Sequence record: NC_070981.1
Direction: 5' to 3' (one strand)
Length of the DNA stretch: 64,000 nt
DNA from: Escherichia phage EK010
Part shown: positions 23,190 to 45,698 of the stretch, piece after piece
How the letters are laid out: every line of letters begins with the position of its first letter
Numbering within the stretch: position 1 is the first letter of the stretch
Translations under genes and position numbers: made by a program
Notes under the pieces: model-generated
Seen by the model: only the letters and a program-made list of their open reading frames with translations
Databases searched by the model: none
Told to the model about the DNA's origin: nothing

Positions 23190-23726
23190 ATGGAATGGAG
23201 AGAACTTCCCGGATATGAGGGACAGTATTCAATCTCTGATAAAGGGGATATCCGTAGTAATTACCGATGGTATCTTAACCCTAAGACACTAACACGCCAT
23301 AAGAAAGATCGTGAATTGATTATGACACCCAATGTTGGTTCAGCGGGTTATGCTCGAATCAAATTAAGTGATCAGATTTTTCATCCGTATCACAGATTGG
23401 TAGCTATTGTTTGGGTAAGCAATCCAGAAAACAAACCTTTCATCAACCATAAAGATGGAAACAAACTGAACAACAACCCTTCTAATCTAGAATGGGTTAC
23501 TTGTCAGGAAAACAATATACATGCATATCAGACAGGTTTAAACTCTGGTATGCTAAGAGCAGAAACCCTTTCACATGTGTGGAATTTTATATCTCCCGAA
23601 GGGGTTCAAACCGAAATCACTAACCTTTGTAAATATTGTAGAGAGAATGATTTATCTAAGTCCTCTATGATAGCAGTACACAAAGGAACTCAATATCAAC
23701 ATAAGGGTTGGAAAAGAAATGAGTAA
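23190..23726 (+). CDS. HNH homing endonuclease (NUMOD4-like N-terminus)
   Basis: WRELPGYEGQYSISDKGDIRS and NHKDGNKLNNNPSNLEWVTCQENNIHA motifs. Confidence 0.8.
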   Translation: MEWRELPGYEGQYSISDKGDIRSNYRWYLNPKTLTRHKKDRELIMTPNVGSAGYARIKLSDQIFHPYHRLVAIVWVSNPENKPFINHKDGNKLNNNPSNLEWVTCQENNIHAYQTGLNSGMLRAETLSHVWNFISPEGVQTEITNLCKYCRENDLSKSSMIAVHKGTQYQHKGWKRNE

Positions 23727-24153
23727 TGAGAAAGTTTTAGTAGCAACTTACGGCAGCTTGAGAAAAGGTCAACACAACCACGCTATCAATGCTCGTGCAG
23801 GTGGTGTGTCTATCGGTGAAGGGTGGACAGTAAACAACTGTAACCTGTATCAGTATTGCACAGCATACTTCCCAAGTGTATCTCTGGTGCATAACAGCAA
23901 TGGTAAGCCTGTTCGTGTAGAGGTCTTTGAGACAACCCAAGCTGGTCTGGAAGGCCCATATGACGGTCTGGAAGGTCACCGTGGCAATGATAACCCATAC
24001 ACCTTTTACAAACGTACATTGATCCCAGTATTATTGGACAGTGGTGAAACTGTGGAAGCGTGGATTTACCATATTGACGAAGAACAAGATGTTCTTGTTG
24101 AATCTGGTGACTGGACAGCATATCTGGCAGGTGAGAAGGATGACAGTAACTGA
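23719..24153 (+). CDS. gamma-glutamyl cyclotransferase (AIG2/GGCT)-like protein
   Basis: N-terminal VATYGSLRKG motif. Confidence 0.65.
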   Translation: MSNEKVLVATYGSLRKGQHNHAINARAGGVSIGEGWTVNNCNLYQYCTAYFPSVSLVHNSNGKPVRVEVFETTQAGLEGPYDGLEGHRGNDNPYTFYKRTLIPVLLDSGETVEAWIYHIDEEQDVLVESGDWTAYLAGEKDDSN

Positions 24154-24346
24154 CAGGCAGAAGTTAAGAAAGCTGGAATCTGACTACTTGAAGATGCGGT
24201 GGAAAATTAATCGCTATGAAAAGTTTGTCAGTATGCTCACACCTGATAAGCACTCTGAAGAATTTATTCACAGAACAAAGCAAACCTTGCAGGGTTTTAG
24301 AAACTTGCAAGATGATGTGTGGGAAGAAATACGATCGTTTTACTAA
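24140..24346 (+). CDS. hypothetical small protein
   Basis: Internal ATG of track ORF 24041-24346 with GAGAAGG SD. Confidence 0.4.
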   Translation: MTVTDRQKLRKLESDYLKMRWKINRYEKFVSMLTPDKHSEEFIHRTKQTLQGFRNLQDDVWEEIRSFY

Positions 24347-24381
24347 GAAGATTGCTCAAGGAATTCCAAGGAGGATAGAGC

Positions 24382-26172
24382 ATGTCAAAGATCATTTTGG
24401 GAGACACAGGCTGTAAAGAGTGTATCTCTCATGGTCGTGATAAGACCCGCAATCACATGATTCTCTTCCGAAATGAAGAGTCCGGTGAGGAGTGGGGTTC
24501 ATGTAACAGATGTGGTGCGTATGAAATCTTCGAGAAAGGAACGACGCCCACTCCTAATGAAAAGAAAGAGCTGTCCCCTGAAGAACTCCGAGAAGTCTTA
24601 GACGATTGCTTAGAGCTTCCTCAGGGAGAGTTGACTCGTCGCTTAATTCCTAAAGCTGTATCTGAACGTTATGGATGCCGTATCGGTTTAAGCCAAACAG
24701 ATGGTCAAACTCCTGACAGCTACTTCTTCCCTCGTGAACGTGATGGGAACATTGTTGGATATGAAGTAAAACTTCTAGACAGCAAGAAGTTCTATTATGT
24801 AGGTAATGTGAAAGAAGCCGACTTGTTTGGTATGGCTCAAGCACAACGTGGTGACGTATACAACAAGAAACTCTTCATCTTTGAAGATCCTCTCTCTTGT
24901 ATGTCTGGGTTCCACGTACTTACCGCGTTTACAAACGCAACTAACATCAAACCTGCTTGCGTCTCTCTTCCGTTCGGTGCAGGTTCAATCTCTTCTGTAT
25001 TATCAAGAAACCGTGATTTTATTAATGGTTTCGAGGAGATTGTACTCTGCATGGACAATGATGATGCAGGTGAGATTGCTTTAACTAAGGGTCGTTCTCT
25101 GTACCCGCATGTTAAGTTTGCAAGGATTCCAAAAGGTACGTTCACTTATAACGGACAAGAAAAGGAAATCAAAGATGCAAACGACATGTTACTTGCAGGG
25201 AGAGGTCAAGAGCTTTTCAACAATCTGAAATATTCAGCTAAGCGGGAATCTCCTGCTGGAGCTGTTACAGTTTTTGATTGCCTCGAAGATGCTCTGAAGA
25301 AAGCGGAATGGGGTATCCCTTATCCGTGGAAAACTCTCAATGACATGACCTTTGGTATTCGTTGGGGAGAGATGGTTGCAATCGGTGGTGGTGTTGGTTC
25401 AGGTAAAACCTTAATCGCACATGAACTGGTAGCATGGCTTTGCCTTGAGCACGGTTTTAATGGTGGTGGCTTCTTCTTGGAAGAGAAGGTAGGCATGTCT
25501 GTTAAGAACATTGCAGGTAAATCCGCATCCATCCCATTCCACCGACCAGATGTTGAGTATGAAGAAAGTCAGCTACGAGATGAAGCACTTCGATACGCTG
25601 ATAAGTTTTTCTTGTACGACAACTTTGGGCAGAATGAGTGGGAAGACATTAAGCAGTGTATTCGCTTTTGGGTAGTTGAGAATCAGTGTAAATTTATCAT
25701 TCTTGATAACATCACTGCATTGGTATCTCACTTAACTCCGTCTGAGGTAAATACAGAAATCAGCAAGATTGCTTCAGAGCTTGCTGGTATGTGTAAGGAA
25801 CTGGACTTCACTGCTTTTGTGTTATCTCACTTGAATGCTCCGGCGGGCGGTGCCCCTCACGAAGAAGGTGGTCAGGTTAAAGAAGTACAGTTTACTGGCT
25901 CACGTTCATTAATGCGCTGGTGTCAATGTATTATCGGTTTCGAACGTAATAAACAAGCGGATGGGTTAGGTAAAAACTTGTCAATCATACGTCTGCTCAA
26001 AGAACGTAACTACGGACAGACAGGGGTTTGCTATACCAAATACATTAACGAAACAGGTCGTCTTGTGGAACGAGAAGATCATGAAGTTGATGAAGATAAT
26101 CCGTTTACAGTCACCAATGGAGAAGATGCAGCTTCCTTACTTTCACAAGAAGGGGAGGCACGTCCATGGTAA
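24382..26172 (+). CDS. DNA primase/helicase (T7 gp4-like)
   Basis: N-terminal Cys4 zinc ribbon, Walker [10 protein letters not shown], Walker B FIILDNIT. Confidence 0.85.
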
Positions 26173-26714
26173 AGAAACTGTATGCGTTTGATATTGAAGG
26201 TGATAACCTCTATGACGGTATTCAGAATGTCTGGTGTATATGGATATTTGATGTACTGTCTGGAGAACGGTGGGGGTATCGCCCTCACCAAATTGAAGAA
26301 GCACTACACAAACTGAAAGAAGCTGATGTAGTAATAGGTCACAATATTATTGATTTTGACCTTCCTGCTTTGTTTAAATTCTACTCTCATGTGATACCTT
26401 TTCGTTTTAATGTCTTTGATACCCTGTGCCTGAGTCGATACCTCAAGCCTGATCGTATTGGTGACAGTCCAGAATACCCCAAAGGCGACCCTAGACATGG
26501 ACCTCGCGGTCATGGCCTCAAGCAATGGGGCGAATTTCTGGGAGAGCTGAAGGGTGATTATGGCGAACAGGAAGAAGCATGGGATGCATTCACTGAAGAC
26601 ATGTTCACATATTGTGAGCAAGACGTTAACTTGACAGTTAAGGTTTACATGTGTCTTTGTCAAATGGCAGGATTTGATTATAAGAATCCCCCATCTCTCA
26701 ACTGGAAAATGTAG
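26166..26714 (+). CDS. DnaQ-like 3'-5' exonuclease (separately encoded proofreading domain)
   Basis: Exo I FDIEGD, Exo [13 protein letters not shown], Exo [11 protein letters not shown]. Confidence 0.8.
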
Positions 26715-26716
26715 AA

Positions 26717-28177
26717 ATGATTAAGATTCCATTATCTGAATTGAACCTTCAAGAAGGAGAAGCCCTCAGTGTAGGGCTTGACCTGATTCGTAATTTGATC
26801 AGAGATAACGTAGTCCCTGATGGTATCTATCCTGTTATTGCAGGTGGTGCTATCCGTGATACGTTCTTCCAAAATCGAACTCCGAATGATGTTGATATCT
26901 TCCTAGTTCAAGGAGGGCTTCGTTGGAACACTCGCCAGGAAAATAGCCCTGCTAACGTAGGTAATGCTGCACTGTTCCTTGACAACTTCTTATCTTGGAC
27001 AGAAAGTAAGGGGCTTCAGGTTACATCTCGCCTAGTTCAGCCTGTTAACGGGACAACCTATGCTGAAGCGCTTTTCACTTTCCAAGAGATTCTGGAAATT
27101 GAGATTGATCAAGTGAAGATTCAGATGATGATTAATCTCCCTCTGGATATGGATACTTTGAGTCGTCGCTTTCCTATGATCTGTCAAGGGTTTATGACTC
27201 TTGGTGATTTGTATGTGTCAAACGAAGGTTTGTTTGCAATGTCATACACTCGTGACATTCCTGTGGTATCTAGTCGTGAAATGAAGTATGTTCACAAGAA
27301 GTGGCCTGAAGCAACTGTTGCAGTTTATAGCAGTTCTACCGAATATATGCACCTTGCAATGGGAGCTTTCGGTGAGCCAGAAGTTCACCTGATTAGTGAT
27401 TTAGTTGGACCTATGGCTGGTGTAAATTTATATCAGAATCAGCGTCGTCATTATACCCTGAAGATGATGGAAACTATATTAAACATTCCTCAGGAAAGGG
27501 GTCGTAGCTATCTGGACGAGGAAGTTAACCTACAGACAGAATGGTCTAGTGGATTAACCACTATAGGTGCTGAAGCAATTACGCAGCCTTGGACTCCGGG
27601 AACTAACAGACGAGATCTTCAAGCTTTTAATGAAGAAACTTCTCGAACTGTTCGAGGAGGTGTTGTAGGGTATAACGTACAACCTCATGAAAGACCTCGT
27701 GACACTTTTACTGGCAGTTTTGGTAGTGCACACTCTTCTGGAATGGATACTCGTACATGGCATGTCCAAGGAGGAACTGCTCGTCCTATTCCTTCTCCGT
27801 CAATGGATGATTTGCAGCGTTCTCGTCGTTCATGGGAAACAGTAAGCTCTGTTGTTCAGGGTCTACGTGCTAGTGATGTAGAACGTGTAGAAGTTGGCGA
27901 TGTGCTGGAAGATGGATTGCTGGCGATAGCGGCTCGTGAAGCTGCTCGTACTGGCTTTGCATCTTTAGCTAATGATGCTAACGAAGCTCCTCGCCCTCGC
28001 CGTCGTAGCGGTTTAGCTCACTCTAACACTGAACTAGGTTCAGAACTCCGATCTGCTGCTCGTGAGCTATCTGGTGAGCTTCACAACAACCTAGCAGGTG
28101 TTACACTATCTCGTGAAACAGCTCGTAATATGATTAATAATTTGGCATCATCTGTACAAGGAAACAGAAACTCATGA
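26717..28177 (+). CDS. Pol-beta superfamily nucleotidyltransferase (tRNA-NT/poly(A) polymerase head-like) with R/S-rich C-terminal tail
   Basis: IAGGAIRDTFF...DVDIF matches GGxVRD...DxD head motif. Confidence 0.5.
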   Translation: MIKIPLSELNLQEGEALSVGLDLIRNLIRDNVVPDGIYPVIAGGAIRDTFFQNRTPNDVDIFLVQGGLRWNTRQENSPANVGNAALFLDNFLSWTESKGLQVTSRLVQPVNGTTYAEALFTFQEILEIEIDQVKIQMMINLPLDMDTLSRRFPMICQGFMTLGDLYVSNEGLFAMSYTRDIPVVSSREMKYVHKKWPEATVAVYSSSTEYMHLAMGAFGEPEVHLISDLVGPMAGVNLYQNQRRHYTLKMMETILNIPQERGRSYLDEEVNLQTEWSSGLTTIGAEAITQPWTPGTNRRDLQAFNEETSRTVRGGVVGYNVQPHERPRDTFTGSFGSAHSSGMDTRTWHVQGGTARPIPSPSMDDLQRSRRSWETVSSVVQGLRASDVERVEVGDVLEDGLLAIAAREAARTGFASLANDANEAPRPRRRSGLAHSNTELGSELRSAARELSGELHNNLAGVTLSRETARNMINNLASSVQGNRNS

Positions 28178-28707
28178 GTCTTTTAGGTTCTCAAGAATTA
28201 CACAGCGTTATTGATAGTGGCTTTTTAGATGCGGAGCATAAATATGTTAACGCTGCTAGTGTGGATATCCGTATTGGTGATACTATCCTTGTTGAAGAAC
28301 AGGCTGATGGTATTGTTGACATTGATGCTAAAGAAAACCTCAAGTGGAAAGAAGTGAAAATCCCTGAAGATGGCATTGTCATTACTCCGGGACAGTTCTT
28401 CTTAGCTCACTCTATGGAAGAATTTAACCTTCCAGATAACATCTCAAGCCTGTTTGTACTCCGCTCCTCGATGGCTCGTTGTGGTTTGAACCACCTACAT
28501 GCTGGTTGGGCTGATGCAGGGTTTAACAGCAGTAAGCTAACCTTTGAGTTCCATAACGTTACCCACAATCACAGCTTACGAGTTCGTGCTGGGATGCGTG
28601 TTGGTCAAATGGTTATGTTTGAACACTCTCACGCTGGTGATGATTCCTATGCAGTGAAGGGTCGTTACAATGGCAGCAATGGTGTAGTTGCTTCTAAAGG
28701 TGTATAA
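28174..28707 (+). CDS. dcd: dCTP deaminase family protein
   Basis: SSMARCGL...GWADAGF...LTFEFHN motifs of dCTP deaminase/dUTPase fold. Confidence 0.8.
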   Translation: MSLLGSQELHSVIDSGFLDAEHKYVNAASVDIRIGDTILVEEQADGIVDIDAKENLKWKEVKIPEDGIVITPGQFFLAHSMEEFNLPDNISSLFVLRSSMARCGLNHLHAGWADAGFNSSKLTFEFHNVTHNHSLRVRAGMRVGQMVMFEHSHAGDDSYAVKGRYNGSNGVVASKGV

Positions 28708-29129: not shown

Positions 29130-29153
29130 TTGGTAGTAGATATGATAACTCTC

Positions 29154-29162
29154 AAATGTATA
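29154..29162 (+). promoter_or_regulatory. AAATGTATA motif (8/9 match to recurring TAATGTATA element)
   Basis: ~38 nt upstream of ATG 29200. Confidence 0.3.
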
Positions 29163-29199
29163 TACAGTATAAGAATATTGTATGAAACAGGAGAGAGTT

Positions 29200-29529
29200 A
29201 TGTTAGATTTGAGTAAAGTGGCCCCGCCATCTGAAGAGATTAGCAAAGCTAAAGTTATGCAGCAGTTCTATCATCGGGATATGCTTGGTCGTTATATCAA
29301 GAATCGTGATGTTGTTGCATGGTCTATTGGAAATCAAGGTTATCTTCTCAAAGTGTTGCAAGTTACTGGCTCAACAGCCAAGCGAGTCAAAGTCTATGAC
29401 CCTGAAATGGGGCGTTCTAAATCAGTAGACCCTCAGAATTGCATTGTTATCACACAACAGGTCATGGATAACATTGCTCGTAATGTAGCTAATTCAACTA
29501 ACTTAGAAGGGGATGCACCTAATGCATAA
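29200..29529 (+). CDS. hypothetical protein
   Basis: ATG with CAGGAGAGAG SD inside track ORF 29182-29529. Confidence 0.5.
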   Translation: MLDLSKVAPPSEEISKAKVMQQFYHRDMLGRYIKNRDVVAWSIGNQGYLLKVLQVTGSTAKRVKVYDPEMGRSKSVDPQNCIVITQQVMDNIARNVANSTNLEGDAPNA

Positions 29530-30088
29530 TAATGTCTTCGACTTACCTGAACTAACACGAGTGGGTTCTAGCAACCCATTCTCTACTACTGACTCTTCTA
29601 TTTCTCGTCTTGAGGGAATGAATAAACTGATTAGTGGTAACAGCTTAGAACACATCTTATGTGATGTGCAAGCTAACCTTGAACTTCTACACATCAAAGC
29701 AAAGAACTACCACTGGAACGTCTCTGGAGCTGGTTTCCAAGGTGTTCATGGTATGTTCGATGAACTAGAAGATTATGCTCGTGAGGCAGGCGACCGAATA
29801 GCAGAGCGTATGCGCTTCCATTGTGTTAAGGTGGATGCCACTGCCAGTAACTATTTAGGTCACGCTTGGTTCCGAGAAGGTAACGCTGATCTCGACATGG
29901 ACGGTATGCTTTCCGACATGTGCATGACTCTTATGTGTATCATTGAGAAGATGGATGAGTTTGATTCAGACTTGTGCACCTATCCAGTGGACCAGAGTAT
30001 GCTTCAAGAAATTAATGAAGGTCTTGGCAAGTTCTGTTACTTCGTCAAGAGCAACATGTCCCACTCCAGTGGTGATGTGTCTTACTAA
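29513..30088 (+). CDS. Dps-like ferritin-fold protein
   Basis: KNYHWNVSGAGFQGVHGMFDELEDYAREAGDRIAERM matches Dps ferroxidase-site region. Confidence 0.7.
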   Translation: MHLMHNNVFDLPELTRVGSSNPFSTTDSSISRLEGMNKLISGNSLEHILCDVQANLELLHIKAKNYHWNVSGAGFQGVHGMFDELEDYAREAGDRIAERMRFHCVKVDATASNYLGHAWFREGNADLDMDGMLSDMCMTLMCIIEKMDEFDSDLCTYPVDQSMLQEINEGLGKFCYFVKSNMSHSSGDVSY

Positions 30089-30508: not shown

Positions 30509-30509
30509 A

Positions 30510-30785
30510 ATGAGTAAAGTGATTAAGTTTTATAGTAACTCCTGTGCTCCGTGTGCAGCTATGGCTCCTGTGTTTAAGAAGGTTGTGGCTGACTATAACG
30601 TTGAAGTTGAAGAGGTAAACATCTCTGAAGGTGATGGTCGAGAGCGGGCCATTGAGTATGGTGTTCGCAGTATCCCAGCCTTCATAGTCCCTGATAATAA
30701 CAGTGGTGCTCACTATAGTTTGTCAGGTATGCAAACTGAATCTAATCTCCGTGCATTTTTAGACACGGCTCTGAAAGGTAAGTAA
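30510..30785 (+). CDS. thioredoxin-like protein (CxxC active site)
   Basis: FYSNSCAPCAAMAPVF; ATG with AAGGAA SD inside track ORF 30456-30785. Confidence 0.7.
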   Translation: MSKVIKFYSNSCAPCAAMAPVFKKVVADYNVEVEEVNISEGDGRERAIEYGVRSIPAFIVPDNNSGAHYSLSGMQTESNLRAFLDTALKGK

Positions 30786-31006: not shown

Positions 31007-31222
31007 ATGGAAAAGAAACCTTGGGTTACTTTTTGGGTAGTTAAGTGGTTTAATTTTGATAGTACAATCCCTAGCTTCTCAACATACTCCACACGGAAAG
31101 AGGCTCGTCGGTTTAAGCGAGCTTTAAAAATTGCTAATACCGGTGCTTCTAAGATTACAATCCAGAAAGGGATTGAAACAGAAAGCGGAAGCAACATGGT
31201 TTATAAAAAGATTCACTATTAA
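31007..31222 (+). CDS. small protein, paralog family B
   Basis: Track ORF. Confidence 0.5.
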   Translation: MEKKPWVTFWVVKWFNFDSTIPSFSTYSTRKEARRFKRALKIANTGASKITIQKGIETESGSNMVYKKIHY

Positions 31223-31229: not shown

Positions 31230-31697
31230 ATGATACAAGACGACTTGGAATACAACCCTAAGACTGGAGACTTCTTCTGGAAGAACACAAAAGGTCGAAG
31301 GGTTAAAGGAAATCAAGCTGGGTATGTATCTTCTCTAGGTTATCGTTACATTGAGCATGAAGGGAAAAGCTACAGAGCTTGTCGCCTTGCTTGGTTCTTT
31401 GTTCATGGAAAGTTTCCTGAGTTTGAAATTGACCACATCGACCAGAACAAACTTAATGACTCAATTGATAACCTAAGAGATGTGAATCCATCTACTAACT
31501 GCCATAACAGAAGGCAGTACGATGTTGATAACAAGATAGGAAATCTTCCTAGAGGTGTGTATCTTCGTAAGACAGCTTCTGGTGATAAATATCGAGCCAT
31601 TATCGGCGTCAAAGGTAAGAATATATACTTAGGGACTTTTGCTTCTTGTGAAGAGGCAGAAGAAGTTTACAACAAGGAGAAGTTGAAGTATGTCTGA
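31230..31697 (+). CDS. HNH homing endonuclease with AP2-like DNA-binding domain
   Basis: EIDHIDQNKLNDSIDNLRDVNPSTNCHNRR; paralog of 42035 gene. Confidence 0.8.
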   Translation: MIQDDLEYNPKTGDFFWKNTKGRRVKGNQAGYVSSLGYRYIEHEGKSYRACRLAWFFVHGKFPEFEIDHIDQNKLNDSIDNLRDVNPSTNCHNRRQYDVDNKIGNLPRGVYLRKTASGDKYRAIIGVKGKNIYLGTFASCEEAEEVYNKEKLKYV

Positions 31698-32340
31698 TTT
31701 TTTAAAAGCAACACTGGTAGAGCACATGGGTTCCGACAAATCTGTGGTCAATGCAGCAAGGGTTTCCTTTGGTGTGACACGAGATGGTGATCTGAACGAA
31801 CGTGACGAGCGGTTGATTAAATTCTTAGCTCGGGAACGTCATGTGACTCCTTTTCGACACCCTCAAATCACCTTTCGGTGTAAGGCTCCCATTGCAATTG
31901 CTAGACAACTCAATAAACACCAAGTTGGATTCTCATGGAACGAAATGTCCCGGCGGTATAAAGATGGAGCAGTTGAACTCTTCATCCCTAAAGAGATTTT
32001 TGAAAGACCTTCGGACCTCCATGCAGGTGCGGGGAATCTCCTTACCACAGGAGCACAAAACTCTGCACTAGTTCTGATTAATCGGGCATACGAAACAGCT
32101 CTTGAGTCGTATGATGAATTGATTAAGTTTATCGCTCCAGAGCAAGCTCGATTTGTTCTACCTCAAGGTATGATCACGGAGTGGGTGTGGACAGGTTCTT
32201 TATATGGCTGGTCAGAGTTATGTCGTCAGCGACTGTCCGACCATGCTCAGTATGAAGTACGAGTGTTCGCATCAACGGTCGATGAAGAGCTTCGTAAACT
32301 TTTCCCAATCTCATGGGATGCACTACGTGAAGCCCACTAA
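31690..32340 (+). CDS. thyX: ThyX-family (flavin-dependent thymidylate synthase) homolog with divergent active-site motif
   Basis: Aligns along its length with ThyX (AARVSF...TPF.H...KAPI..ARQ...S.NE.S.RY) but canonical RHR is K-H-Q here. Confidence 0.75.
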   Translation: MSDFLKATLVEHMGSDKSVVNAARVSFGVTRDGDLNERDERLIKFLARERHVTPFRHPQITFRCKAPIAIARQLNKHQVGFSWNEMSRRYKDGAVELFIPKEIFERPSDLHAGAGNLLTTGAQNSALVLINRAYETALESYDELIKFIAPEQARFVLPQGMITEWVWTGSLYGWSELCRQRLSDHAQYEVRVFASTVDEELRKLFPISWDALREAH

Positions 32341-33995: not shown

Positions 33996-34319
33996 ATGAT
34001 GACCGATAAGGCGAAACGTGATTATGCACAAGAACGAAGAACTGCAATCGCAAGGGGTGAAACCGGCGTTGGTAGCAAGAGCGGAGATGCTCAGCGCCAC
34101 CGTGCACGTCGCATCGTTGAAAAGCGCGATGGAAAAGCTGCTGTCCGAGGTAAAGATGTTGGACATAAACGATCAATCAAGTCGGGAGGTTCTAATGCGT
34201 CAAGTAACTTACGTGTTGAATCAGTCTCTCGAAATCGCTCGAACGGCGGCAAAAGTGGAGATCGTGCTGGAAAATCAGCAGGAGGAGTCAAATCGAGAAA
34301 AGGCGCTCTAAGTCAATGA
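33996..34319 (+). CDS. highly basic Gly/Arg/Lys-rich protein
   Basis: Track ORF with AAGGAG SD; chosen over overlapping frame 34018-34311. Confidence 0.5.
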   Translation: MMTDKAKRDYAQERRTAIARGETGVGSKSGDAQRHRARRIVEKRDGKAAVRGKDVGHKRSIKSGGSNASSNLRVESVSRNRSNGGKSGDRAGKSAGGVKSRKGALSQ

Positions 34320-34810
34320 TTCCGATTTCCGACTACTTGTCATACGACCCGGATACTGGTTTATTGATTTTTACCGAATCTAGCTCTAAAGGTAAGAAAT
34401 GGAATAAATCACATCCGGGAAAAGTGGCAGGGGCTGTTGATGAAAAAGGATATATCAGAGTTTACTTTGAAGGGAGGAGATGGAAAGCTCACAGACTTAT
34501 AGCTTCTGTGCTCATACCTAACCCTGAAAATAAACCACAAATTAACCACATCAATGGTAACAAAAGTGATAATAGGTTAGAGAACCTAGAGTGGGTCACT
34601 GGTCATGAAAATATACAACATGCTTTTTCAACAGGTCTTAATGTTGGTAAAGAGAGGGATGCTAATGGAATGACTAAAATCAACACATTGGATGTGGAGA
34701 AGATCAAGAGTTTATATGTTAAAGGCTCTACCACTCACGGAACAAGAGCACTAGGTAAGATGTTTGGCGTAAGTCACACAGCTATCCGACATGCTTTAAG
34801 CTCAAGTTAA
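34316..34810 (+). CDS. HNH homing endonuclease
   Basis: INHINGNKSDNRLENLEWVTGHENIQHA. Confidence 0.8.
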   Translation: MIPISDYLSYDPDTGLLIFTESSSKGKKWNKSHPGKVAGAVDEKGYIRVYFEGRRWKAHRLIASVLIPNPENKPQINHINGNKSDNRLENLEWVTGHENIQHAFSTGLNVGKERDANGMTKINTLDVEKIKSLYVKGSTTHGTRALGKMFGVSHTAIRHALSSS

Positions 34811-35747: not shown

Positions 35748-37595
35748 GTGATGGATAACCCTGATAAGTTACCTTTCATAACGGAGATGACAGTCGCTGA
35801 TATAATCTCAAAACAAGCGAAGCATGGAGTCAACTTCAACAGAAGAAACGCTCGGTGGTTTGTTCACCTTCTCAAAGAGATTATTGTCAATATTGATAAA
35901 GAACTGATTCCTCTCCTCCCCAAAATGCGGGTGGATGGTTCAACTTATGCTAAGCCTTTTAAGAAATCAGGTGCTTTACAGAAGTGGCCTCAACTCTATT
36001 GTGATAGGGTTGGTCTTAAAAGAGAAGATATCGGTGGGGCGTTTACTTGCGTTGAGTATGTAGACTTTGACCCATCAAAAGATGCACGTATCAAAGAAGC
36101 CTTGATGGATGAAGGTTTTATACCTCCAGAGTGGAATTATTCTAAGAAACCTTGGAATACTTTTGAAATTCGTAAAGCTATGAAGAAGTATGGTACATAC
36201 TCTGCATGGTATTCTGCTTGGATTCGAGGTAACGCTAAAGAGAAACAGACAGCAGAGATGATAGATGCTGATATCCGAAGGTTTTTGGATAAGCACTTCC
36301 GTTATCACACTGTCAACTATATGAAAGCCTATGTCAGCGGTTTAGGTCTTAACCCTAACAGGAAGAAGCCTGTAACCTTTGATGAAATCAAAAAAGCTTT
36401 GGCTACATCAAACAAGTGGCCTACAGCCCCTACAAACCTTGAGGAGACTCTTGAAGAGGGGCTTGGGGGTGAGCTAGGGGGTGTAGGAAGTTTGCTTAAG
36501 AGACGCGTTGTAGCGGCTCACAGGCTAGGTTTGATTAGCGGGCTTATCGACAAGGAACGTAAAGATGGTAAGTTGTCCGCCGAAGCTAATAGCTGCGCTA
36601 CTCCGACATTTCGTTTTAAACATCGCATTGTTGTTAATATTCCTTCTCGCGGTTTGTTTGGTCACGAGTGCCGCAGTCTTTTTCAATCTGACTATTCCTC
36701 AGACGATAGTCATAACCATCCTTTCATCATTACCAACCATATCCCTGATGGGTGTTACGTACGAAAGGGTACTAACATTATCTACGAAATGGGAAAACCG
36801 GGCAAGAAAGACAAACCAATAGGTGCTTATAAATTTTATGTACCTGCTGGTCGTGAAATCTTCTTAGGTTACGATGGCTCTGGTCTTGAGCTGAGGATGC
36901 TTGCTCATTACCTTATCAAAGAATGTCGTGAGATGCTCGCTGAAGCAGAGCAGGAAAACAACCCAGCTAAGAAACGAGAAGCTGAACGCGGTCTAGCTTC
37001 TGCTGTTATGTACAGAGATATTCTTTTAGAAGGAGATATTCACTCACACAACCAAAAACTTGCTGGCCTTCCTACTCGTGATAATGCTAAAACGTTTATC
37101 TACGCATTCAACTACGGAGCTGGTGACGCTAAGTTAGGAAGCATCGTAGGTGGTGGCTCTGATGAAGGGGCTGTCATGAGGGCAAGATTCTTAGCAGAGA
37201 ATCCTTGTATTGCAATTCTTATTGAACGTATGACAGAGAAAGCACAAAGTGGATACATCTACGGTGTGGATGGACGTCGTATTACAATGAGAAGGGATGC
37301 AACTGGAAAGGTTATGGTTCATAAAGCCTTAAACACCCTCTTACAGAGCGCTGGGGCGATTGTTATGAAGTATGCAATGCTATTCCTTAATAAATGGATT
37401 GAGCGTGATGGTGTTCGTTGTGCGAAGGTTATTGACATGCATGATGAAGGCCAGTTCACTGTACATCGTGACGATGTTAACAAACTTCGTACCCTCACTG
37501 AAGAGTGTGTTCGTAAAGCAGGTGAATACCTCAAAATGGAATGTCCTCTTGCATCTGATTGTAAGATTGGGTTAAACTGGAATCACACTCACTAA
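35748..37595 (+). CDS. family-A DNA polymerase, polymerase domain
   Basis: Motif A DGSGLELRMLAHY, motif B KTFIYAFNYGAG, motif C VIDMHDEGQF. Confidence 0.9.
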   Translation: MMDNPDKLPFITEMTVADIISKQAKHGVNFNRRNARWFVHLLKEIIVNIDKELIPLLPKMRVDGSTYAKPFKKSGALQKWPQLYCDRVGLKREDIGGAFTCVEYVDFDPSKDARIKEALMDEGFIPPEWNYSKKPWNTFEIRKAMKKYGTYSAWYSAWIRGNAKEKQTAEMIDADIRRFLDKHFRYHTVNYMKAYVSGLGLNPNRKKPVTFDEIKKALATSNKWPTAPTNLEETLEEGLGGELGGVGSLLKRRVVAAHRLGLISGLIDKERKDGKLSAEANSCATPTFRFKHRIVVNIPSRGLFGHECRSLFQSDYSSDDSHNHPFIITNHIPDGCYVRKGTNIIYEMGKPGKKDKPIGAYKFYVPAGREIFLGYDGSGLELRMLAHYLIKECREMLAEAEQENNPAKKREAERGLASAVMYRDILLEGDIHSHNQKLAGLPTRDNAKTFIYAFNYGAGDAKLGSIVGGGSDEGAVMRARFLAENPCIAILIERMTEKAQSGYIYGVDGRRITMRRDATGKVMVHKALNTLLQSAGAIVMKYAMLFLNKWIERDGVRCAKVIDMHDEGQFTVHRDDVNKLRTLTEECVRKAGEYLKMECPLASDCKIGLNWNHTH

Positions 37596-40536: not shown

Positions 40537-40730
40537 AAGTTATTGTTTTAAGTTAAGTTTTCTTTTGATTTTAATAGAGAATCAAAGTCCTAGGAGTCCT
40601 CAACCTAAATCAAGGATTTCCTTAATTCTCTATTTTTATCTCGCAGGTGTCTCCTGCCCTTCGGTACTTGCAAGGGTTACGATGATTGCCCAATATACAA
40701 GCCTGCAATAGCTTTACTAGCTATACCATA

Positions 40731-40739
40731 TATACATTA
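40731..40739 (-). promoter_or_regulatory. TAATGTATA motif on minus strand
   Basis: Plus-strand TATACATTA; orientation opposite to neighbouring genes. Confidence 0.25.
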
Positions 40740-40801
40740 CTACTTACTGTTATCTACTACCAAAAAGGTTATAGTATAATAGAACCTTATCTGTATAAGT
40801 G

Positions 40802-40810
40802 TAATGTATA
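40802..40810 (+). promoter_or_regulatory. TAATGTATA motif, candidate phage-sigma promoter element
   Basis: Exact 9-mer ~60 nt upstream of ATG 40870. Confidence 0.4.
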
Positions 40811-40869
40811 TAGTATACAAACCGCTCAAAGAGAGCAACAATCTTAAATCTATATAAGGAAATATTAAT

Positions 40870-41610
40870 ATGTCTATGATCCCTGAACTGTCTGTATCCC
40901 GTAAATCCAACTACGATGTAATCCCTGATGGTGAGTACGAAGCACGTATTGTTCGTGTTGTAGGTTTGGGTGTTCACAATCGTGACCCTTGGATTGACCC
41001 TAAAACCAAAGCAGTTACTCCTAAGAACCCAGCTTTCCGTATGGACTTAGCTTTTGAGCTGATTGGCGTAGATGCAACAGGGACTGATAATGAAGGCAAA
41101 CCTCTGGACCCTCGCCCTGCTTGCCAGTTTAAATCTTTCGATGTAAATCCACGAGCTAAGAACTCTGGTATTCTGAATCTGATTAAAATGATCGACCCAA
41201 GTGTTCAAGCACTGAAAGGTGATTTGGGTTGGTTTAAAGATATGCTGTTAGGTCAGCCTGTTAACATTCTGGTTAATTCCTATGTAAACAAAGCTGGTGA
41301 GAAGAAAAACTCTATTAAGAGTATCACTCCAATTCCGACCAAATATCGTGATGCTGTAGGTGCTCCTCGTAGTGAGTTGATCTTCTTCGAACCGTATGCT
41401 GAGACTGATGCTAACTTAGCTGCTTATCAAGCAATCTTCCCATTCCAACGTAACCTCTTGACTCAAGCTAACGATGCTAAGAACATTCCTCTGGCTGGTC
41501 GTGAAGTTACCAAAGCTTCTGACACTGAACAGAAGGACGCAACTCCGAGTATCCCTACTATTAATGAAGAGCCGCAGTCTACCTTTGAAGAGGACGACTC
41601 TCCTTTCTGA
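40870..41610 (+). CDS. possible single-stranded DNA-binding protein
   Basis: Acidic C-terminal tail ending EEDDSPF, reminiscent of SSB C-termini (DDDIPF); no fold evidence. Confidence 0.4.
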   Translation: MSMIPELSVSRKSNYDVIPDGEYEARIVRVVGLGVHNRDPWIDPKTKAVTPKNPAFRMDLAFELIGVDATGTDNEGKPLDPRPACQFKSFDVNPRAKNSGILNLIKMIDPSVQALKGDLGWFKDMLLGQPVNILVNSYVNKAGEKKNSIKSITPIPTKYRDAVGAPRSELIFFEPYAETDANLAAYQAIFPFQRNLLTQANDAKNIPLAGREVTKASDTEQKDATPSIPTINEEPQSTFEEDDSPF

Positions 41611-41633
41611 TGAATCTCTCCTTGTAATAGCTT

Positions 41634-41657
41634 AGCCACCTTCGGGTGGCTTTTTTC
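41634..41657 (+). terminator. intrinsic terminator
   Basis: AGCCACC-TTCG-GGTGGCT hairpin, TTTTT. Confidence 0.75.
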
Positions 41658-41669
41658 GTTGGAGTTAAA

Positions 41670-42011
41670 ATGGAAAAGCTTCAAAACAATATAGGCTTTC
41701 TTATTTTCACAGCTCTTATTTTCTTTGGTGGAATGAAGTTTGAGCAATATCGAAACGATAGCAGTGCTCTTGACCAAGAGAAGAAACAACAAGAGATAGA
41801 GATTGAGAGAGCCAAGGCTGCTGATGAAGTAGCTCAGAAAGTTCTTACCGGTTTAACTAACTGGAAGAAGAACACGGAAACTATTTACAAAGAGATGCAT
41901 TATGAAAAGACTAAGCCAGTTTTTTACAATGTGTGTGCTAGCGATGAGTATGTCTCTTTATTTAACCAAAGACAGGAAGAAGCTAAGAGGGTTTTAAAAT
42001 CGAAGGAATAG
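41670..42011 (+). CDS. membrane protein with N-terminal TM helix
   Basis: ATG inside track ORF 41646-42011. Confidence 0.5.
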   Translation: MEKLQNNIGFLIFTALIFFGGMKFEQYRNDSSALDQEKKQQEIEIERAKAADEVAQKVLTGLTNWKKNTETIYKEMHYEKTKPVFYNVCASDEYVSLFNQRQEEAKRVLKSKE

Positions 42012-42034
42012 AAGAGTTTTTATCCTATGATGAA

Positions 42035-42493
42035 ATGTCAGGAAAACTAACGTGGAGAAGCTCTGAAAAGAAGAGCAATCAATGGAACTCTAGGTTTGCT
42101 GGAAAAGAGGCTGGCTGTTTGATAGATGCTGGATACATTGTTGTGAGGTTTAATGGGAAAGCACATAAAGCTCACAGAGTGGCTTGGTATTTAAAAACAG
42201 GAGAAATCCCTGATACTGATATCGACCACAAAGATCAGATTAAATCTAACAATTCTTGGACCAACCTGAGAAAAGCAACCAATGCGCAGAATCAGATGAA
42301 TACATCTGCTCAGAAGAATTCTATAACAGGTATAAAAGGTGTCGGATATAGAAAGGATGTTAACAAGTGGACTGCTCGAATAGGGTTTGAGGATAAAGTT
42401 ATTTGGCTTGGTTTTCATGATACACTGGAAGGAGCTAAGTGTGCATATAAAGAAAAAGCTATTGAGTTGTACGGGGATTTTGCTAGCTTTTAG
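42035..42493 (+). CDS. HNH homing endonuclease with AP2-like domain
   Basis: IDHKDQIKSNNSWTNLRKATNAQNQMN; paralog of 31230 gene. Confidence 0.75.
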   Translation: MSGKLTWRSSEKKSNQWNSRFAGKEAGCLIDAGYIVVRFNGKAHKAHRVAWYLKTGEIPDTDIDHKDQIKSNNSWTNLRKATNAQNQMNTSAQKNSITGIKGVGYRKDVNKWTARIGFEDKVIWLGFHDTLEGAKCAYKEKAIELYGDFASF

Positions 42494-42707
42494 TTTATCA
42501 GCTTGTTCAACGAGCGACAACAGCAGGCAATCAATGCCCTTACCAACAAACCTAAAAGCTGAATGTAGAGTTGACCTACCTCTTTTAGAGAGTGCTCAAG
42601 GGAAGGCACTAGCCACTACGTTGGAGTGGTATCAGGACCAGTACACAGAATGTGCTGCTAATCACAATGGATTGTTAGAAGCTCTGAAAGAGCGTGGAAT
42701 AGAATAA
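42417..42707 (+). CDS. putative lipoprotein (lipobox LSAC)
   Basis: ATG inside track ORF 42387-42707; overlaps 3' end of HNH gene. Confidence 0.4.
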   Translation: MIHWKELSVHIKKKLLSCTGILLAFSLSACSTSDNSRQSMPLPTNLKAECRVDLPLLESAQGKALATTLEWYQDQYTECAANHNGLLEALKERGIE

Positions 42708-43045
42708 TGGAAGTCCTTAATTTCTACAAAGAGGGGTTGAAGATTCCAGAAGGCGCTATTTACATAGGAAGATATAGTGCCAAGCATGGTCTACCACAAT
42801 CTAAGTATCACAACCCAATAAAGCTCCAAGAGGGTGAGCCAAGAGGTTCTACTCTGGATAAGTATAGGAAATATTTATGGGGTGAGATAAAAGCTGGCAG
42901 AATAACTGTGGAAGAGCTTGCAAATCTGTATGGAACAAACCTTGTGTGTTATTGTAAGCCCAAACCTTGTCATGGGGATATCCTTATGGCTGCTATAAAA
43001 TGGGCAAAAGAAGAAATGGATAATGCTATAACTAAGGAAAGATGA
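42707..43045 (+). CDS. DUF4326-like protein (CYCxPxPCHGD motif)
   Basis: Track ORF; motif [15 protein letters not shown]; assignment from memory. Confidence 0.45.
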
Positions 43046-43695
43046 TGGCGAAGAAGACAACACCTACAAGATATCGAATTCATGGAATCCCTATTAAGTA
43101 TATCTCAAACTATGAAGAGTTTTACAGAGTGAACTGGAAAGTGGTTCACAAGTTCTTCATGTATGATATCAGGGATTATCATGAAGCAGAAGATGTGGCA
43201 CAAGAAGTGCTCTTGAATGCTTGGAGATTTGTCTTCGCTAAGCAGGATGAGAGAGTCCTAGAGGATGAGAAAGACCAAGAGCATATGACTTATCGAGTCA
43301 AGAACATTATCTGGTCGATTCGTTCTAATCGTCAGACAGTTGGAGACCGACGTATCTACTCTATTCCAGAGGCTGATATGTTTAGACCTCCTGAGATGAA
43401 CTCATGGGAAAGTCCTTTAGAAATTGCGATGGATAAGCATGATTCTACTGGAGACCCATTCTTGGAATCTAGAATCTTTTTCTTCTTCCAAGACCTGAGT
43501 GACATTATGGAAAACCGTAAGATGGCAAGCATGTTCTCAATGCTCTTTCTCGGCATCCCACATGATCACATCCAGCAGGAGCTGGGAATTTCACACGGAA
43601 CCTTCTATCGCCGTTATGCAGAGAATCGTGATCTGTATGAAGCGGTAGTAGAGAAGCACTTTGATAAAGAAGATCTTCAAGGGATGATTCAATAA
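43042..43695 (+). CDS. phage-encoded sigma factor (sigma70/ECF-like)
   Basis: Region-2-like [15 protein letters not shown] and C-terminal HTH-like region. Confidence 0.65.
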
Positions 43696-44291
43696 TGAGT
43701 AAACCATTAGTAGTAATTCTGAATGGACCACCGGGTTGTGGTAAAGATACAATCGCTAATGCTTGGCTAGAATTCACTAAAGAGAACATTGAATTTAAGC
43801 CACATATAAAGGCTTTTAAGGAGCCTATGTACCGAGTTGCTGCTGCTGCATTAGGTATTCCTATTGACGAGTTCATGGAGCTGTATAGCGACCGTGAGTG
43901 GAAAGAACGAAGCCGTCCTGAATGGGGCGGTAAGTCAGTTCGAGATTTGATGATTGCAACTAGTGAGAGCTACTTGAAGCCAATGTTTGGTGATACCTGT
44001 ATGGGTAAGTTGGCTGTTAGTAGTATCAAACGACAACTGTTAGGACAGAAAGATGTTATCGTCTTCTCTGATGGTGGATTCAAAGCAGAAGTTTCAGAAC
44101 TGGAAGAACAATTCCATGTTCAAGTAGTTCAGATTCTTCGTGATGGTTGCACTTTTGAAGGAGACTCTCGGTCTTACATCGAAGGCAGTCAGAGAAACAC
44201 ATATTACCTAGTAAACGATTCTACTGTAGAAGATGCAATAGACTATTTAAATTGGATTGTTGTACGGACACGGAGAGATCTCTATGTCTGA
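43695..44291 (+). CDS. P-loop kinase (possible dNMP kinase)
   Basis: Walker A GPPGCGKDT. Confidence 0.55.
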   Translation: MSKPLVVILNGPPGCGKDTIANAWLEFTKENIEFKPHIKAFKEPMYRVAAAALGIPIDEFMELYSDREWKERSRPEWGGKSVRDLMIATSESYLKPMFGDTCMGKLAVSSIKRQLLGQKDVIVFSDGGFKAEVSELEEQFHVQVVQILRDGCTFEGDSRSYIEGSQRNTYYLVNDSTVEDAIDYLNWIVVRTRRDLYV

Positions 44292-45105
44292 TGTAATTTA
44301 TCCTGAAGTAGCAATTGTGGATGCAGATGTTCTGCGATATGAAGTCGGTGCTCTTACACAAGAGCATCCTTTTCTAGACACAGGTCGTGTTCCAGTTGAT
44401 TATGGATTCTTGATTGAACGACTTCAACATAAAATAGATGTAATCATTGCAAGGTCTGGTTGCGAGAAAACAATCTTTTACTTCAGCGAAGGTGGTAATT
44501 TTCGGTTTGATATTGCTAAGCAGCAAGGTTATAAAGCTAATCGACCACTGGGAGAAAGACCTCATCATTGGCAGAACGTTAGTGATTATATTAAAGAAAA
44601 TTACGAGTATGTAGAAGTTTTTGGGAGAGAGGCAGATGATGCCTTAGCTGAAAGACAGAGACGTGATAAGAACACTATCATTTGCACCCGTGATAAAGAT
44701 TTGTTAATCACCCCCGGATGGCATTACCGTTGGGCTTGCGGGGAGAGACAGAAAGAAGTACCTCCTCATTATGTATCAGAGGAAGTAGCATGGCAGAACT
44801 TCTTCTACCAGATGTTGATTGGGGATAGGACAGATAATATTCCCGGATGTGGTGAGAAGGTTGAAATGATGTGGGGTGGCAACCTAGTGATGCGTCGTCA
44901 AGGTGTTGGCAGCAAGGCTGCAATCGAACTTATTGAGAAGGTATTCGATAAGTGGACTCTTTATCATATTATACGAATGGAATACTATAAGAGGTTCGAG
45001 GAAGAAGCAGAAGCTAAGATGTTAGAAAACGCTCGATTGCTCTTCGTTGGACAAGCTGAAGGCGACCTCTTTGATTGGTCGTGGTTAGATAAAACTTGGG
45101 AATAA
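44284..45105 (+). CDS. 5'-3' exonuclease / flap endonuclease (FEN family)
   Basis: GREADD, TRDKDLL, GDRTDNIPG motifs. Confidence 0.8.
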   Translation: MSDVIYPEVAIVDADVLRYEVGALTQEHPFLDTGRVPVDYGFLIERLQHKIDVIIARSGCEKTIFYFSEGGNFRFDIAKQQGYKANRPLGERPHHWQNVSDYIKENYEYVEVFGREADDALAERQRRDKNTIICTRDKDLLITPGWHYRWACGERQKEVPPHYVSEEVAWQNFFYQMLIGDRTDNIPGCGEKVEMMWGGNLVMRRQGVGSKAAIELIEKVFDKWTLYHIIRMEYYKRFEEEAEAKMLENARLLFVGQAEGDLFDWSWLDKTWE

Positions 45106-45115
45106 GGATATTATA

Positions 45116-45307
45116 ATGGGTAAATTTGACTATCGTTCGTATGATGAAAACTCCTCTACTCGTGAATCTCGTAAAGATCAAAAGATTAAGCACCAAGCAT
45201 TTGATCGTCGCACAGGCCGTATCCCTCGTGCTGATAAAGAATCACACCGAGTCAATAAACGCATTTGGGAAGACGCTGATATGGATGTAGGTTATGGCGA
45301 AAGCTGA
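45116..45307 (+). CDS. hypothetical protein (63 aa)
   Basis: Track ORF. Confidence 0.5.
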   Translation: MGKFDYRSYDENSSTRESRKDQKIKHQAFDRRTGRIPRADKESHRVNKRIWEDADMDVGYGES

Positions 45308-45698
45308 GAAGACAAGATGCTCTGGTCAGTGGACTGAAGCACGTTATAACTCCTTCATTAAGTCAGGGATTCGTTCTCTGACTAGGAAATGGAAACCTAT
45401 GTTTGATTCTCTCAAAGAGGCTCAGACAGAACGTAAAATCAACCCTAAAACTGGCAAAATGGCAATGCATTACAAGTGCGCCATGTGTGGTAATGATTCT
45501 CCTCTTAAAGACGTAGCAGTAGACCATATAGAGCCTATTGTTCCAGTGGACCATGAAGCTACTTGGGATGAAATCATCGAGAGGGCTTTAGTTGAGAAAG
45601 ATGGTTTTCAAGTCTTATGCAAAGAGCCTTGCCATAAGATAAAAACTAAGGAAGAGAATGATGCAAGACGCGAATTTAAAAAATCTAGAGACTTCTGA
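45294..45698 (+). CDS. HNH endonuclease
   Basis: CAMCGN ... DHIEPIVP ... CKEPCHKIK motif. Confidence 0.65.
   Translation: MAKAEKTRCSGQWTEARYNSFIKSGIRSLTRKWKPMFDSLKEAQTERKINPKTGKMAMHYKCAMCGNDSPLKDVAVDHIEPIVPVDHEATWDEIIERALVEKDGFQVLCKEPCHKIKTKEENDARREFKKSRDF

Follow-up and report, generated by a model that had tools for sequence, protein, structure and literature searches.

The 64,000-nucleotide stretch of Escherichia phage EK010 analysed here (NC_070981.1; the window) contains five open reading frames (ORFs) with HNH nuclease signatures, all on the + strand, which we call HNH1 to HNH5 in order of position (Table 1). Four of these, HNH1-4, are very probably free-standing homing endonuclease genes of the HNH_3 class, with HNH1 and HNH3 resembling I-HmuI and HNH2 and HNH4 of the HNH-AP2 type; HNH3 and HNH4 would be carried on intronless cassettes that supply surrogate ends to the genes they enter, and HNH5 would be a vertically inherited HNH-like nuclease. 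Positions 23000-46000 are 100% identical to Escherichia phage E20-1 (OP293233.1; Kuravirus, Gordonclarkvirinae), and we use that name for the sequence below. A first-pass annotation had read all five ORFs as free-standing HNH homing genes that arrived by insertion. The ORFs are all where it placed them, and its reading holds for HNH1-4, which are patchily distributed with precise empty sites and breakpoints, but not for HNH5, which lacks the Pfam HNH_3 domain of the other four, is HNH-like by PHROG match and motif only, and belongs to a different class.

Among GenBank records, 97 phages match positions 23000-46000, with 19 of the 97 covering at least 80% of the query, and tblastn searches with the HNH proteins were run against 50,697 phage records. 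A scan of IMG/VR with the polymerase protein returned only ~10 close loci, GenBank phage records being far more informative, and was the source of the distant single-ORF polymerases considered below. Loci are numbered L002 (Bas87), L003 (SU10), L004 (SU7), L005 (ECBP2) and L011 (phiEco32), with L006 and L014 denoting IMG/VR relatives. HNH1-4 are patchy among the ~97 related records, and each is absent from close relatives whose flanks are 92-100% identical. Comparison with relatives lacking individual genes thus defines the insertion sites of all four, each with presence or absence at the same locus and a precise empty site, a pattern not seen for HNH5; gene order does not simply run on without interruption, and the breakpoints coincide with HNH genes. 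No intron or intein context was detected around HNH1-4. Nonsynonymous divergence (pN) is far below synonymous divergence (pS) in all four, and for this reason we reject the view that they are decaying pseudogenes.

Domains and insertion sites of the HNH_3 genes

HNH1-4 all pass the Pfam gathering score for HNH_3 (PF13392, 24.8 bits) and have intact catalytic (D/N)H...N...N residues. HNH1 aligns over its full length with I-HmuI, the HNH nickase of the DNA polymerase intron of Bacillus phage SPO1 (PDB 1U3E; residues 1-174 of HNH1 to residues 1-166, E=2.4e-16), and the catalytic core of HNH3 is 51% identical to that of HNH1. I-HmuI and these two genes have in common an HNH_3 domain and an N-terminal NUMOD4-type DNA-binding module, but I-HmuI sits in a group I intron whereas HNH1 is free-standing and intergenic and HNH3 is free-standing at the 3' end of a gene. 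HNH2 and HNH4, described in the first-pass annotation as paralogs with AP2-like domains, are indeed homologous over their full length (30% identity over 148 amino acids [aa], E=1e-19), including the C-terminal region, and comparison of the HNH4 C-terminus with the AP2 domain of plant WRI1 gives a match of E=1.8e-4; the AP2 assignment is weighed further below. Their N-terminal HNH_3 domain and putative C-terminal AP2-type DNA-binding region are features of the HNH-AP2 homing endonucleases of phages, cyanobacteria and protists (Magnani et al. 2004, as cited in PMC10448857), to which the 'IPA-HNH' group of ICP1 is related. Homologues of HNH4 or HNH2 occur in ~3,500 phage records and are mostly annotated as HNH or homing endonucleases. 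A tblastn search with all five HNH proteins turned up no other HNH_3-type gene in the 64 kb of the window, GIY-YIG and LAGLIDADG genes not having been systematically searched.

HNH1 occupies an insertion of ~551 bp (~23176-23726) that stands in place of a 26 bp spacer in Bas87 and SU7, between a hairpin and a gamma-glutamyl cyclotransferase (GGCT)-like gene. The HNH1 ORF overlaps the start of this gene (23719) by 8 nt and alters its first codons (MSNEKV vs. MSDKV). HNH1 is missing from the site in Bas87, SU7, NC-B and TH34, where the flanks are 92-100% identical, and also in SU10; the sole other carrier among GenBank phages is EcoN5, with a copy of 66% aa identity at the same site. The pN of HNH1 is 0.26 and its pS is 0.74.

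HNH2 is inserted directly after TAAGGAAGA in the intergenic region upstream of thyX. Its stop codon overlaps the thyX ATG (31690) by 8 nt, and the thyX ribosome-binding site has been taken over by HNH2. The site is empty in NC-B, TH43, TH42 and SU10, whereas ECBP2 and Bas87 have copies with >95% aa identity, and six other phages carry genes of ~71% identity at the same site; relative to Bas87, the nonsynonymous and synonymous rates (dN/dS) are 0.019/0.191. The insertion is accompanied by an unusual thyX 5' end. Over the initial ~250 nt of thyX, the three HNH2 carriers are 99-100% identical to one another and only 66-77% identical to the HNH2-less NC-B and TH34/42/43, with which identity is 90-98% elsewhere and recovers from ~31900-32000, and the ThyX N-terminus is recoded (MSDFLKATLVEH vs. 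MNEQLQATLIEA). These identity profiles suggest that the segment is probably a co-conversion or immunity tract.

Cassettes inside coding sequence

HNH3 is inserted within the last nine codons of a gene encoding a 106-aa protein. Empty alleles of this gene end in ...GG RKGALSSS and a stop (CGA AAA GGA GCT TTA AGC TCA AGT TAA), the tail at the empty site in Bas87 and NC-B reading CG(A/C)AAAGGAGCTTTAAGC, whereas the E20-1 gene ends in ...GG VKS RKGALSQ and a stop (AGA AAA GGC GCT CTA AGT CAA TGA). Junction alignments with ten empty-site relatives show that four of the six conserved codons in the surrogate tail are synonymously recoded. The HNH3 ATG overlaps the stop codon of the 106-aa gene (ATGA), and the last 18 nt of HNH3 (34793-34810, GCT TTA AGC TCA AGT TAA, encoding ALSSS and a stop) are what is left of the ancestral 3' end of this gene. 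HNH3 is absent from Bas87, SU7, NC-B and TH43, with flanks 97-100% identical; its copies in TH42 and TH34 have 98-99% aa identity, those in 4E8 and Bas89 74%, and those in roughly ten others ~66%. The independent HNH3 lineages of 4E8 and EcoN5 have their own recoded tails, also ending in ALSQ and a stop. ECBP2 (L005 ~8986-9060) lacks an HNH gene at this site and has a hybrid tail, GGVKSRKGALSSS and a stop (VKSRKGALSSS), which combines the surrogate VKS with the ancestral end and looks like a footprint of endonuclease-gene loss or of co-conversion.

A more elaborate arrangement is found at HNH4, which lies in the overlap of the genes encoding the i-spanin Rz and the o-spanin Rz1. Eleven empty-site phages share an uninterrupted sequence in which GATGAGTATGTC is followed directly by AGCTTGTTCAACGAGCG, and the insert lies exactly at this joint; the empty sites of SU10, phiEco32, ECBP2, NC-B, TH34/42/43, L006, L013 and L014 read GTC followed by AGCTTGTTCAA. 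The empty site encodes the end of Rz (...DEYVSLFNERQQQAINALTNKPKS and a stop) and also, in the +1 frame, the Rz1 signal peptide and lipobox (MRKLNQFFIMSALVMSMS followed by AC), such that the Rz1 signal peptide of these phages (MRKLNQFFIMSALVMSMSAC) is encoded inside Rz. All of the empty-site Rz alleles (n=11) end in ...SLFNERQQQA(I/A)NALTNKPKS and a stop.

The HNH4 cassette contains, in order, a surrogate Rz tail, the HNH-AP2 gene, and a surrogate Rz1 start with its signal peptide. The surrogate Rz tail (41955-42011; 57 nt, TCT TTA TTT AAC CAA AGA CAG GAA GAA GCT...TAG) encodes SLFNQRQEEAKRVLKSKE and a stop, and uses codons other than the ancestral ones for six of the seven conserved residues. 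At the other end of the cassette, Rz1 begins with AGGAG-N6-GTG at 42441, in the +1 frame of the last ~17 codons of HNH4, and its start and signal peptide (MHIKKKLLSCTGILLAFSLSAC) are encoded within the 3' end of HNH4 (42441-42499). The signal sequence MHIKKKLLSCTGILLAFSLS joins the ancestral AC of the lipobox and the mature Rz1 sequence, giving a KKK, a hydrophobic core and LSAC, with the lipobox Cys codon at 42504-42506 and the mature part ancestral. The first-pass annotation had noted that the 42035 gene overlaps the start of a lipoprotein ORF, and this lipoprotein is the o-spanin, the SU7 equivalent of which is annotated as such. Rz has a family match and a hydrophobic N-terminal segment (FLIFTALIFFGGM) and Rz1 a signal peptide and lipobox, as expected if the two encode a two-component spanin. 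We note that the E20-1 record annotates the o-spanin from an internal ATG (42534-42707) as a 57-aa hypothetical protein, which is probably wrong.

The C-terminal motif EL(F/Y)G(D/E)FA is an inherent feature of the HNH family, being present in its members from FelixO1-like, T5-like and Erwinia phages, and therefore the signal peptide has been overprinted on the endonuclease gene, not the reverse. The kuravirus copies differ from their HNH-AP2 kin in that their final ~17 codons double, in a different frame, as coding sequence for an o-spanin signal peptide. The ancestral Rz tail has been kept as a vestige downstream of the cassette because it overlaps the Rz1 coding sequence. In the HNH4 lineage of Bas87 and SU7 (65% aa identity) the cassette is laid out in the same way, with a recoded tail and a signal peptide of its own. 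Recoded surrogate tails are seen in two independent lineages at both the HNH3 and the HNH4 sites. HNH4 would have landed in a dual-coding Rz/Rz1 overlap and converted an 'overlapped' spanin pair into a 'separated' one.

The relationships of HNH4 itself point to arrival by horizontal transfer. It has 98% aa identity to its counterpart in KM01, a phage of a clade that is otherwise ~80% identical (dN/dS 0.008/0.195), and 65-67% to the genes at the same site in Bas86/87, SU7 and PAS59. Informative sites are Bas87-like up to 41942, KM01-like from 41954-42706 and 43039-43308, with a return to Bas87-like sites at 43317. No more than 12 nt separate the left breakpoint from the HNH4 insertion point, and the right breakpoint is ~800 nt downstream, in the sigma-like gene; the flanks upstream of the cassette are only 73-89% identical to KM01. 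Such a pattern is consistent with a KM01-like phage having donated the cassette, co-conversion being one-sided. Within the tract, 42707-43045 contains a DUF4326 gene (Pfam 1.9e-17) that is not homologous to KM01, SU10 or Bas87. The slot downstream of Rz1 is variable, with a macro-domain ('Appr-1-p processing') gene in SU10 and KM01 and a 74-aa ORF in Bas87 and SU7.

Family-invariant N-terminal residues of HNH4 (the L..Y of an LSYDE motif) are encoded upstream of the first canonical start (41984-42035), and an AUC at 41996 in E20-1 and KM01, or an AUU in Bas87 (~22150-22200) and SU7, is conserved 7 nt past GAGGG or GGAGG. The true start is probably this upstream AUC, a weak non-canonical codon.

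An alternative account of the HNH4 site places the 42035 gene in a self-splicing group I intron of Rz, splicing of which would restore the ancestral Rz C-terminus. This is how the Bas87 GenBank record is laid out, with Rz given as a two-piece 'Rz-like spanin' join spanning the endonuclease gene. Downstream (42500-42562), the ancestral tail of Rz remains intact and in frame with the HNH ORF, and relatives do carry an HNH-bearing group I intron in the polymerase gene. We nonetheless regard an intron here as very unlikely. There is no match to Intron_gpI (RF00028) at the gathering score anywhere in the window, nor at E<=10 in 41600-42800, and the same settings find the polymerase intron of SU7 (L004 17403-18009; ~607 nt and HNH-bearing), which scores a sub-threshold 26.3 bits (E=2e-4) and has canonical U/G boundaries. 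At the HNH4 site the three possible junction registers give C/C, U/U and G/A, none of which is an exon-end U with an intron-terminal G, and only 86 nt of the insert (80 + 6 nt) lie outside the HNH ORF. An in-frame, protein-conserving and recoded Rz tail with its own stop codon, present in two diverged lineages, would be pointless if the insert were spliced, splicing would strip the Rz1 start and signal peptide from the mRNA, and retention of the vestigial tail is explained by the Rz1 overlap. The intron-style join in the Bas87 record is thus probably wrong.

The SU7 polymerase insert separates H565 from D566 in polymerase motif C, a position also interrupted in ECBP2 and L006; the E20-1 polymerase allele is uninterrupted at the homologous site (37442/37443). 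The SU7 record annotates the interrupted polymerase gene as three separate coding sequences. Of two further interruptions in IMG/VR relatives, L014 has a polymerase gene split at residues 455/457 (~11361-12146, a ~780 nt insert), and L006 has phoH split near residue 63-65 (~7072-8045, a ~970 nt insert).

Both the insertion of homing endonucleases in this subfamily and the separation of T5-family spanin genes by an endonuclease gene are already published. In Shivani and phiR201, T5-family phages with a GIY-YIG gene between the spanin genes, the i-spanin differs at its extreme C-terminus only and the o-spanin in its signal sequence only, and phiEco32 and ECBP2 are listed in the same study only as 'overlapped' (Kongari et al. 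2018, PMC6139136). The anatomy is the same as at 41955-42499, but it arose in a different event, in phages of another family and with another kind of endonuclease (GIY-YIG there, HNH-AP2 in E20-1). E20-1 is a second and independent instance with another enzyme family, and one for which the direction, junctions, recoding and donor tract are resolved here. We lean, with some reserve, towards a fuller interpretation in which the kuravirus cassettes have become self-contained gene-end replacement modules, the element at the spanin site combining a recoded Rz tail that would both preserve Rz function and give immunity, an endonuclease gene apparently started from AUC or AUU with its Shine-Dalgarno sequence inside that tail, and a de novo, overprinted Rz1 start and signal peptide, with the architecture of the lysis genes changed as a result; T5-like phages would have come to the same solution independently with GIY-YIG enzymes.

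HNH5 and the separated polymerase genes

HNH5 is of a different nature. It matches eight PHROG 'HNH endonuclease' families, and its CxxC...DH...CxxCH residues are invariant across genera. It has no Pfam HNH match at E<=1, no NCBIfam match and no significant match in the PDB with either the single sequence or a seven-sequence profile, the best being the HNH region of ZRANB3 (E=0.72, not significant); a single-sequence AlphaFold model was unusable (pLDDT 45). In every relative that has the locus, down to 60% identity, HNH5 follows the 5'-3' exonuclease gene, and its identities of 98/97/95/81/60% track those of the adjacent exonuclease (97/98/93/81/56-60%). Because it is syntenic everywhere and its identity tracks that of its neighbour, HNH5 is on comparative grounds a vertically inherited core gene and not a homing element. 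It is labelled 'terminase small subunit' in E20-1 and SU7, a mislabelling that arose from its HNH domain, with the terminase genes located elsewhere (Batinovic et al. 2023, PMC9965538). Like the packaging-associated HNH proteins of the HK97 gp74 type (Kala et al. 2014, as cited in PMC9965538), HNH5 is a small, conserved, non-mobile phage protein of HNH type, but it differs from them in having no adjacent terminase gene, lying instead at the end of an early/middle operon, and in lacking a Pfam HNH match.

The first-pass annotation also proposed that the HNH genes may explain why the polymerase exonuclease and polymerase are encoded separately. In full, this reading has all five genes mobile and an HNH insertion as the agent of the separation. 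There is some ground for this, since distant relatives (33-40% identity) have exonuclease and polymerase in one ORF directly after primase/helicase, so that the split happened at some time, and endonuclease-bearing inserts do interrupt the polymerase gene in SU7, ECBP2 and L006, and presumably in L014, at the positions given above. However, in all Gordonclarkvirinae-like loci, whatever their HNH content, the exonuclease gene lies beside primase/helicase with the polymerase gene 7-9.5 kb downstream beyond conserved genes, and the same arrangement is present in SU10, in phiEco32 and in genera with 46-73% polymerase identity that lack these HNH genes. Conservation of the split in relatives without them shows that the HNH genes do not explain it; no HNH gene touches either polymerase-gene boundary in E20-1, HNH5 is a syntenic and co-diverging core gene, and we consider the proposal highly improbable. 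The distant single-chain enzyme aligns only to polymerase residues 272-615, from which it follows that the split is a true one. The gene arrangement across these loci indicates that the split is real but old, and nothing in the data points to an ancient endonuclease-mediated event. A separate idea, that the exonuclease gene is a duplicate of a degenerate N-terminal domain of the polymerase, was rejected as there is no similarity between them.

Mobility and genomic context

We envisage mobility of HNH1-4 as follows. A phage carrying one of the genes and a related non-carrier would co-infect one cell, the endonuclease would nick or cut the conserved, uninterrupted target of the non-carrier, and recombinational repair templated by the carrier would then bring in the endonuclease gene together with sequence next to it. 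Carriers would themselves be immune, both because the insertion splits their target and because the cassette brings a synonymously recoded copy of it. For HNH3 and HNH4, whose cassettes lie inside coding sequence without introns, the host genes would be kept intact by replacement gene ends. Horizontal transfer with flanking co-conversion is indicated for HNH4 by the KM01-like tract and for HNH2 by the thyX 5' tract; the co-conversion signal is weak or absent at HNH1 and HNH3.

Several observations count against this account. The target sites of HNH1-4 are inferred from insertion points only. AP2 (PF00847) is found in HNH4 at 27.5 bits (E=3.9e-6), under its gathering score of 33.3 bits, and in HNH2 there is no Pfam match to it even at E<=10. 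No canonical start codon precedes the conserved N-terminal motif of HNH4, and in the Bas87 lineage the first one comes 50 residues in, so some copies could be poorly expressed. The flanks of HNH1 show next to no conversion tract and the databases contain no close donor for it, and the Rz join of the Bas87 record, as set out above, is intron-like.

The start of HNH4, on which annotators disagree, and the isolation of HNH1, which has no close relative and no obvious conversion tract, would also suit a reading in which the four HNH_3 genes are immobile now, either as domesticated or decaying remnants with another role, such as exclusion of co-infecting relatives or degradation of host DNA, or as genes that have simply not yet been lost. 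Of the alternatives considered, we give this one the least credence. All four genes are under strong purifying selection with DH...N...N motifs intact, HNH4 has passed from one clade to another together with flanking sequence (its aa identity to KM01 being 98% at a dS of ~0.2), and near-identical copies of HNH2 and HNH3 occur in a few phages only. Exclusion of competitors, moreover, is the mode of action of free-standing homing endonuclease genes and is hardly a distinct alternative.

Mobility of HNH1-4 has close parallels elsewhere. The replication locus is reported to be fully syntenic across Gordonclarkvirinae 'besides homing endonuclease insertions' (BASEL-2, PMC11990801), and Barth et al. 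2023 (PMC10448857) describe endonuclease genes as marking boundaries of genetic exchange, with HNH-AP2 enzymes also among those described. The free-standing Seg and Mob homing endonucleases of T4 and the pattern of Barth et al. resemble HNH1-4 in being intronless, located between genes or at gene ends, patchy, and associated with a tract that starts at the endonuclease gene, SegG being a case of marker exclusion with co-conversion (as cited in PMC10448857). T4 Seg enzymes are of the GIY-YIG family whereas those of E20-1 are HNH_3, and two of the E20-1 cassettes are inside coding sequence with recoded gene ends. In Aeromonas phage Aeh1, mobE is likewise a free-standing endonuclease gene in a coding region without intron or intein and with host-gene function presumably kept, but there nrdA is cut into two polypeptides, an intronless gene splitting (ref. 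8 in PMC10448857), whereas the E20-1 host genes remain whole by means of surrogate ends borne on the cassettes.

Further HNH_3-type genes are present in other kuraviruses (SU10 20942-21355, phiEco32 19506-19919, L013 13745-14188, L009 9604-9972), at sites upstream of Rz, immediately ahead of the core gene HNH5 and directly preceding the polymerase gene. From their presence at these sites it follows that the subfamily has many more homing sites than the four of E20-1.

The region is a rightward early/middle operon in which primase/helicase, the exonuclease subunit, nucleotidyltransferase, dCTP deaminase, thioredoxin, thyX, PhoH and the family-A polymerase are followed by phosphoesterase, the Rz/Rz1 spanins, a sigma-like factor, dNMP kinase and the 5'-3' exonuclease (Table 1). 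The description of the HNH genes as sitting at junctions between replication genes is only loosely true, as their neighbours are the GGCT-like gene, thyX, the 106-aa protein gene and the genes for both spanins. The segment 26717-28707, which lies between the exonuclease and polymerase genes, encodes a 486-aa nucleotidyltransferase (PHROG 12715, without a Pfam match) and the dCTP deaminase, genes that are speculated to take part in DNA modification (BASEL-2, PMC11990801). The nucleotidyltransferase is ~32% identical between the E20-1/Bas87 clade and the SU10/phiEco32 clade, with flanks at 80-94%. Two labels in the E20-1 GenBank record are probably wrong: 'holin' (30510-30785) is thioredoxin in SU10 and Bas87, and 'integrase' (29522-30088) is a DNA-binding protein with a ferritin-like match. 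A single tRNA-Arg(UCU) gene is located at 10318-10395 (Rfam 67.5 bits; ARAGORN).

Table 1. Coordinates of the HNH genes, associated tracts and neighbouring genes in the window.
Feature	Position	Strand	Evidence or remark
HNH1	23190-23726	+	NUMOD4 E=1e-9; HNH_3 (PF13392) E=1.2e-8, 34.8 bits
Primase/helicase	24382-26172		
Polymerase exonuclease subunit	26166-26714		
HNH2	31230-31697	+	HNH_3 E=1e-9, 38.4 bits; first ATG of ORF opening at 31131
Divergent thyX 5' tract linked to HNH2	31690-31950	+	Identity profiles
106-aa protein gene	33999-34319	+	Surrogate 3' end 34286-34319 from HNH3 cassette
HNH3	34316-34810	+	HNH_3 E=2.4e-9, 37.1 bits; HTH-like tail
Family-A DNA polymerase	35748-37595		
Rz i-spanin gene	41670-42011	+	PHROG 1152 Rz-like spanin 3.6e-34
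KM01/SU10-like recombination tract in Bas87-like genome	41954-43308	+	Informative sites
HNH4 cassette	41955-42499	+	545-bp insert with 2-nt junction ambiguity, after GATGAGTATGTC in Rz/Rz1 overlap
HNH4	42035-42493	+	HNH_3 E=8e-16, 57.8 bits; PHROG 99, 2.3e-57
Rz1 o-spanin gene	42441-42707	+	PHROG 2425 9.7e-26; translation
Vestigial ancestral Rz 3' end (SLFNERQQQAINALTNKPKS and stop)	42500-42562	+	Same as SU10 Rz tail
HNH5	45294-45698	+	PHROG 3106 'HNH endonuclease' 2.3e-37; CxxC...DH...CxxCH

The finding is real and largely ordinary, with the surrogate-end cassettes a neat, incremental addition to the biology of homing endonucleases. It tidies the annotation of this region, which has four true homing genes, a mislabelled core HNH-like gene and an o-spanin that had been truncated. 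Empty-site alleles in close, culturable relatives (NC-B, ECBP2, SU10 and the Bas phages) make experiments on target sites, immunity and co-conversion straightforward, and HNH1-4 could be a source of new enzymes that nick or cleave specific sequences. At the spanin genes and the 106-aa gene there are clean natural examples of how recoded gene ends may render an intronless endonuclease gene harmless within coding sequence, and the HNH4 site shows a lipoprotein signal peptide arising by overprinting. If the interpretation of the cassettes as gene-end replacement modules is true, homing would recur at the dual-coding spanin overlap, and both overprinting and changes in gene architecture could be driven by selfish elements.

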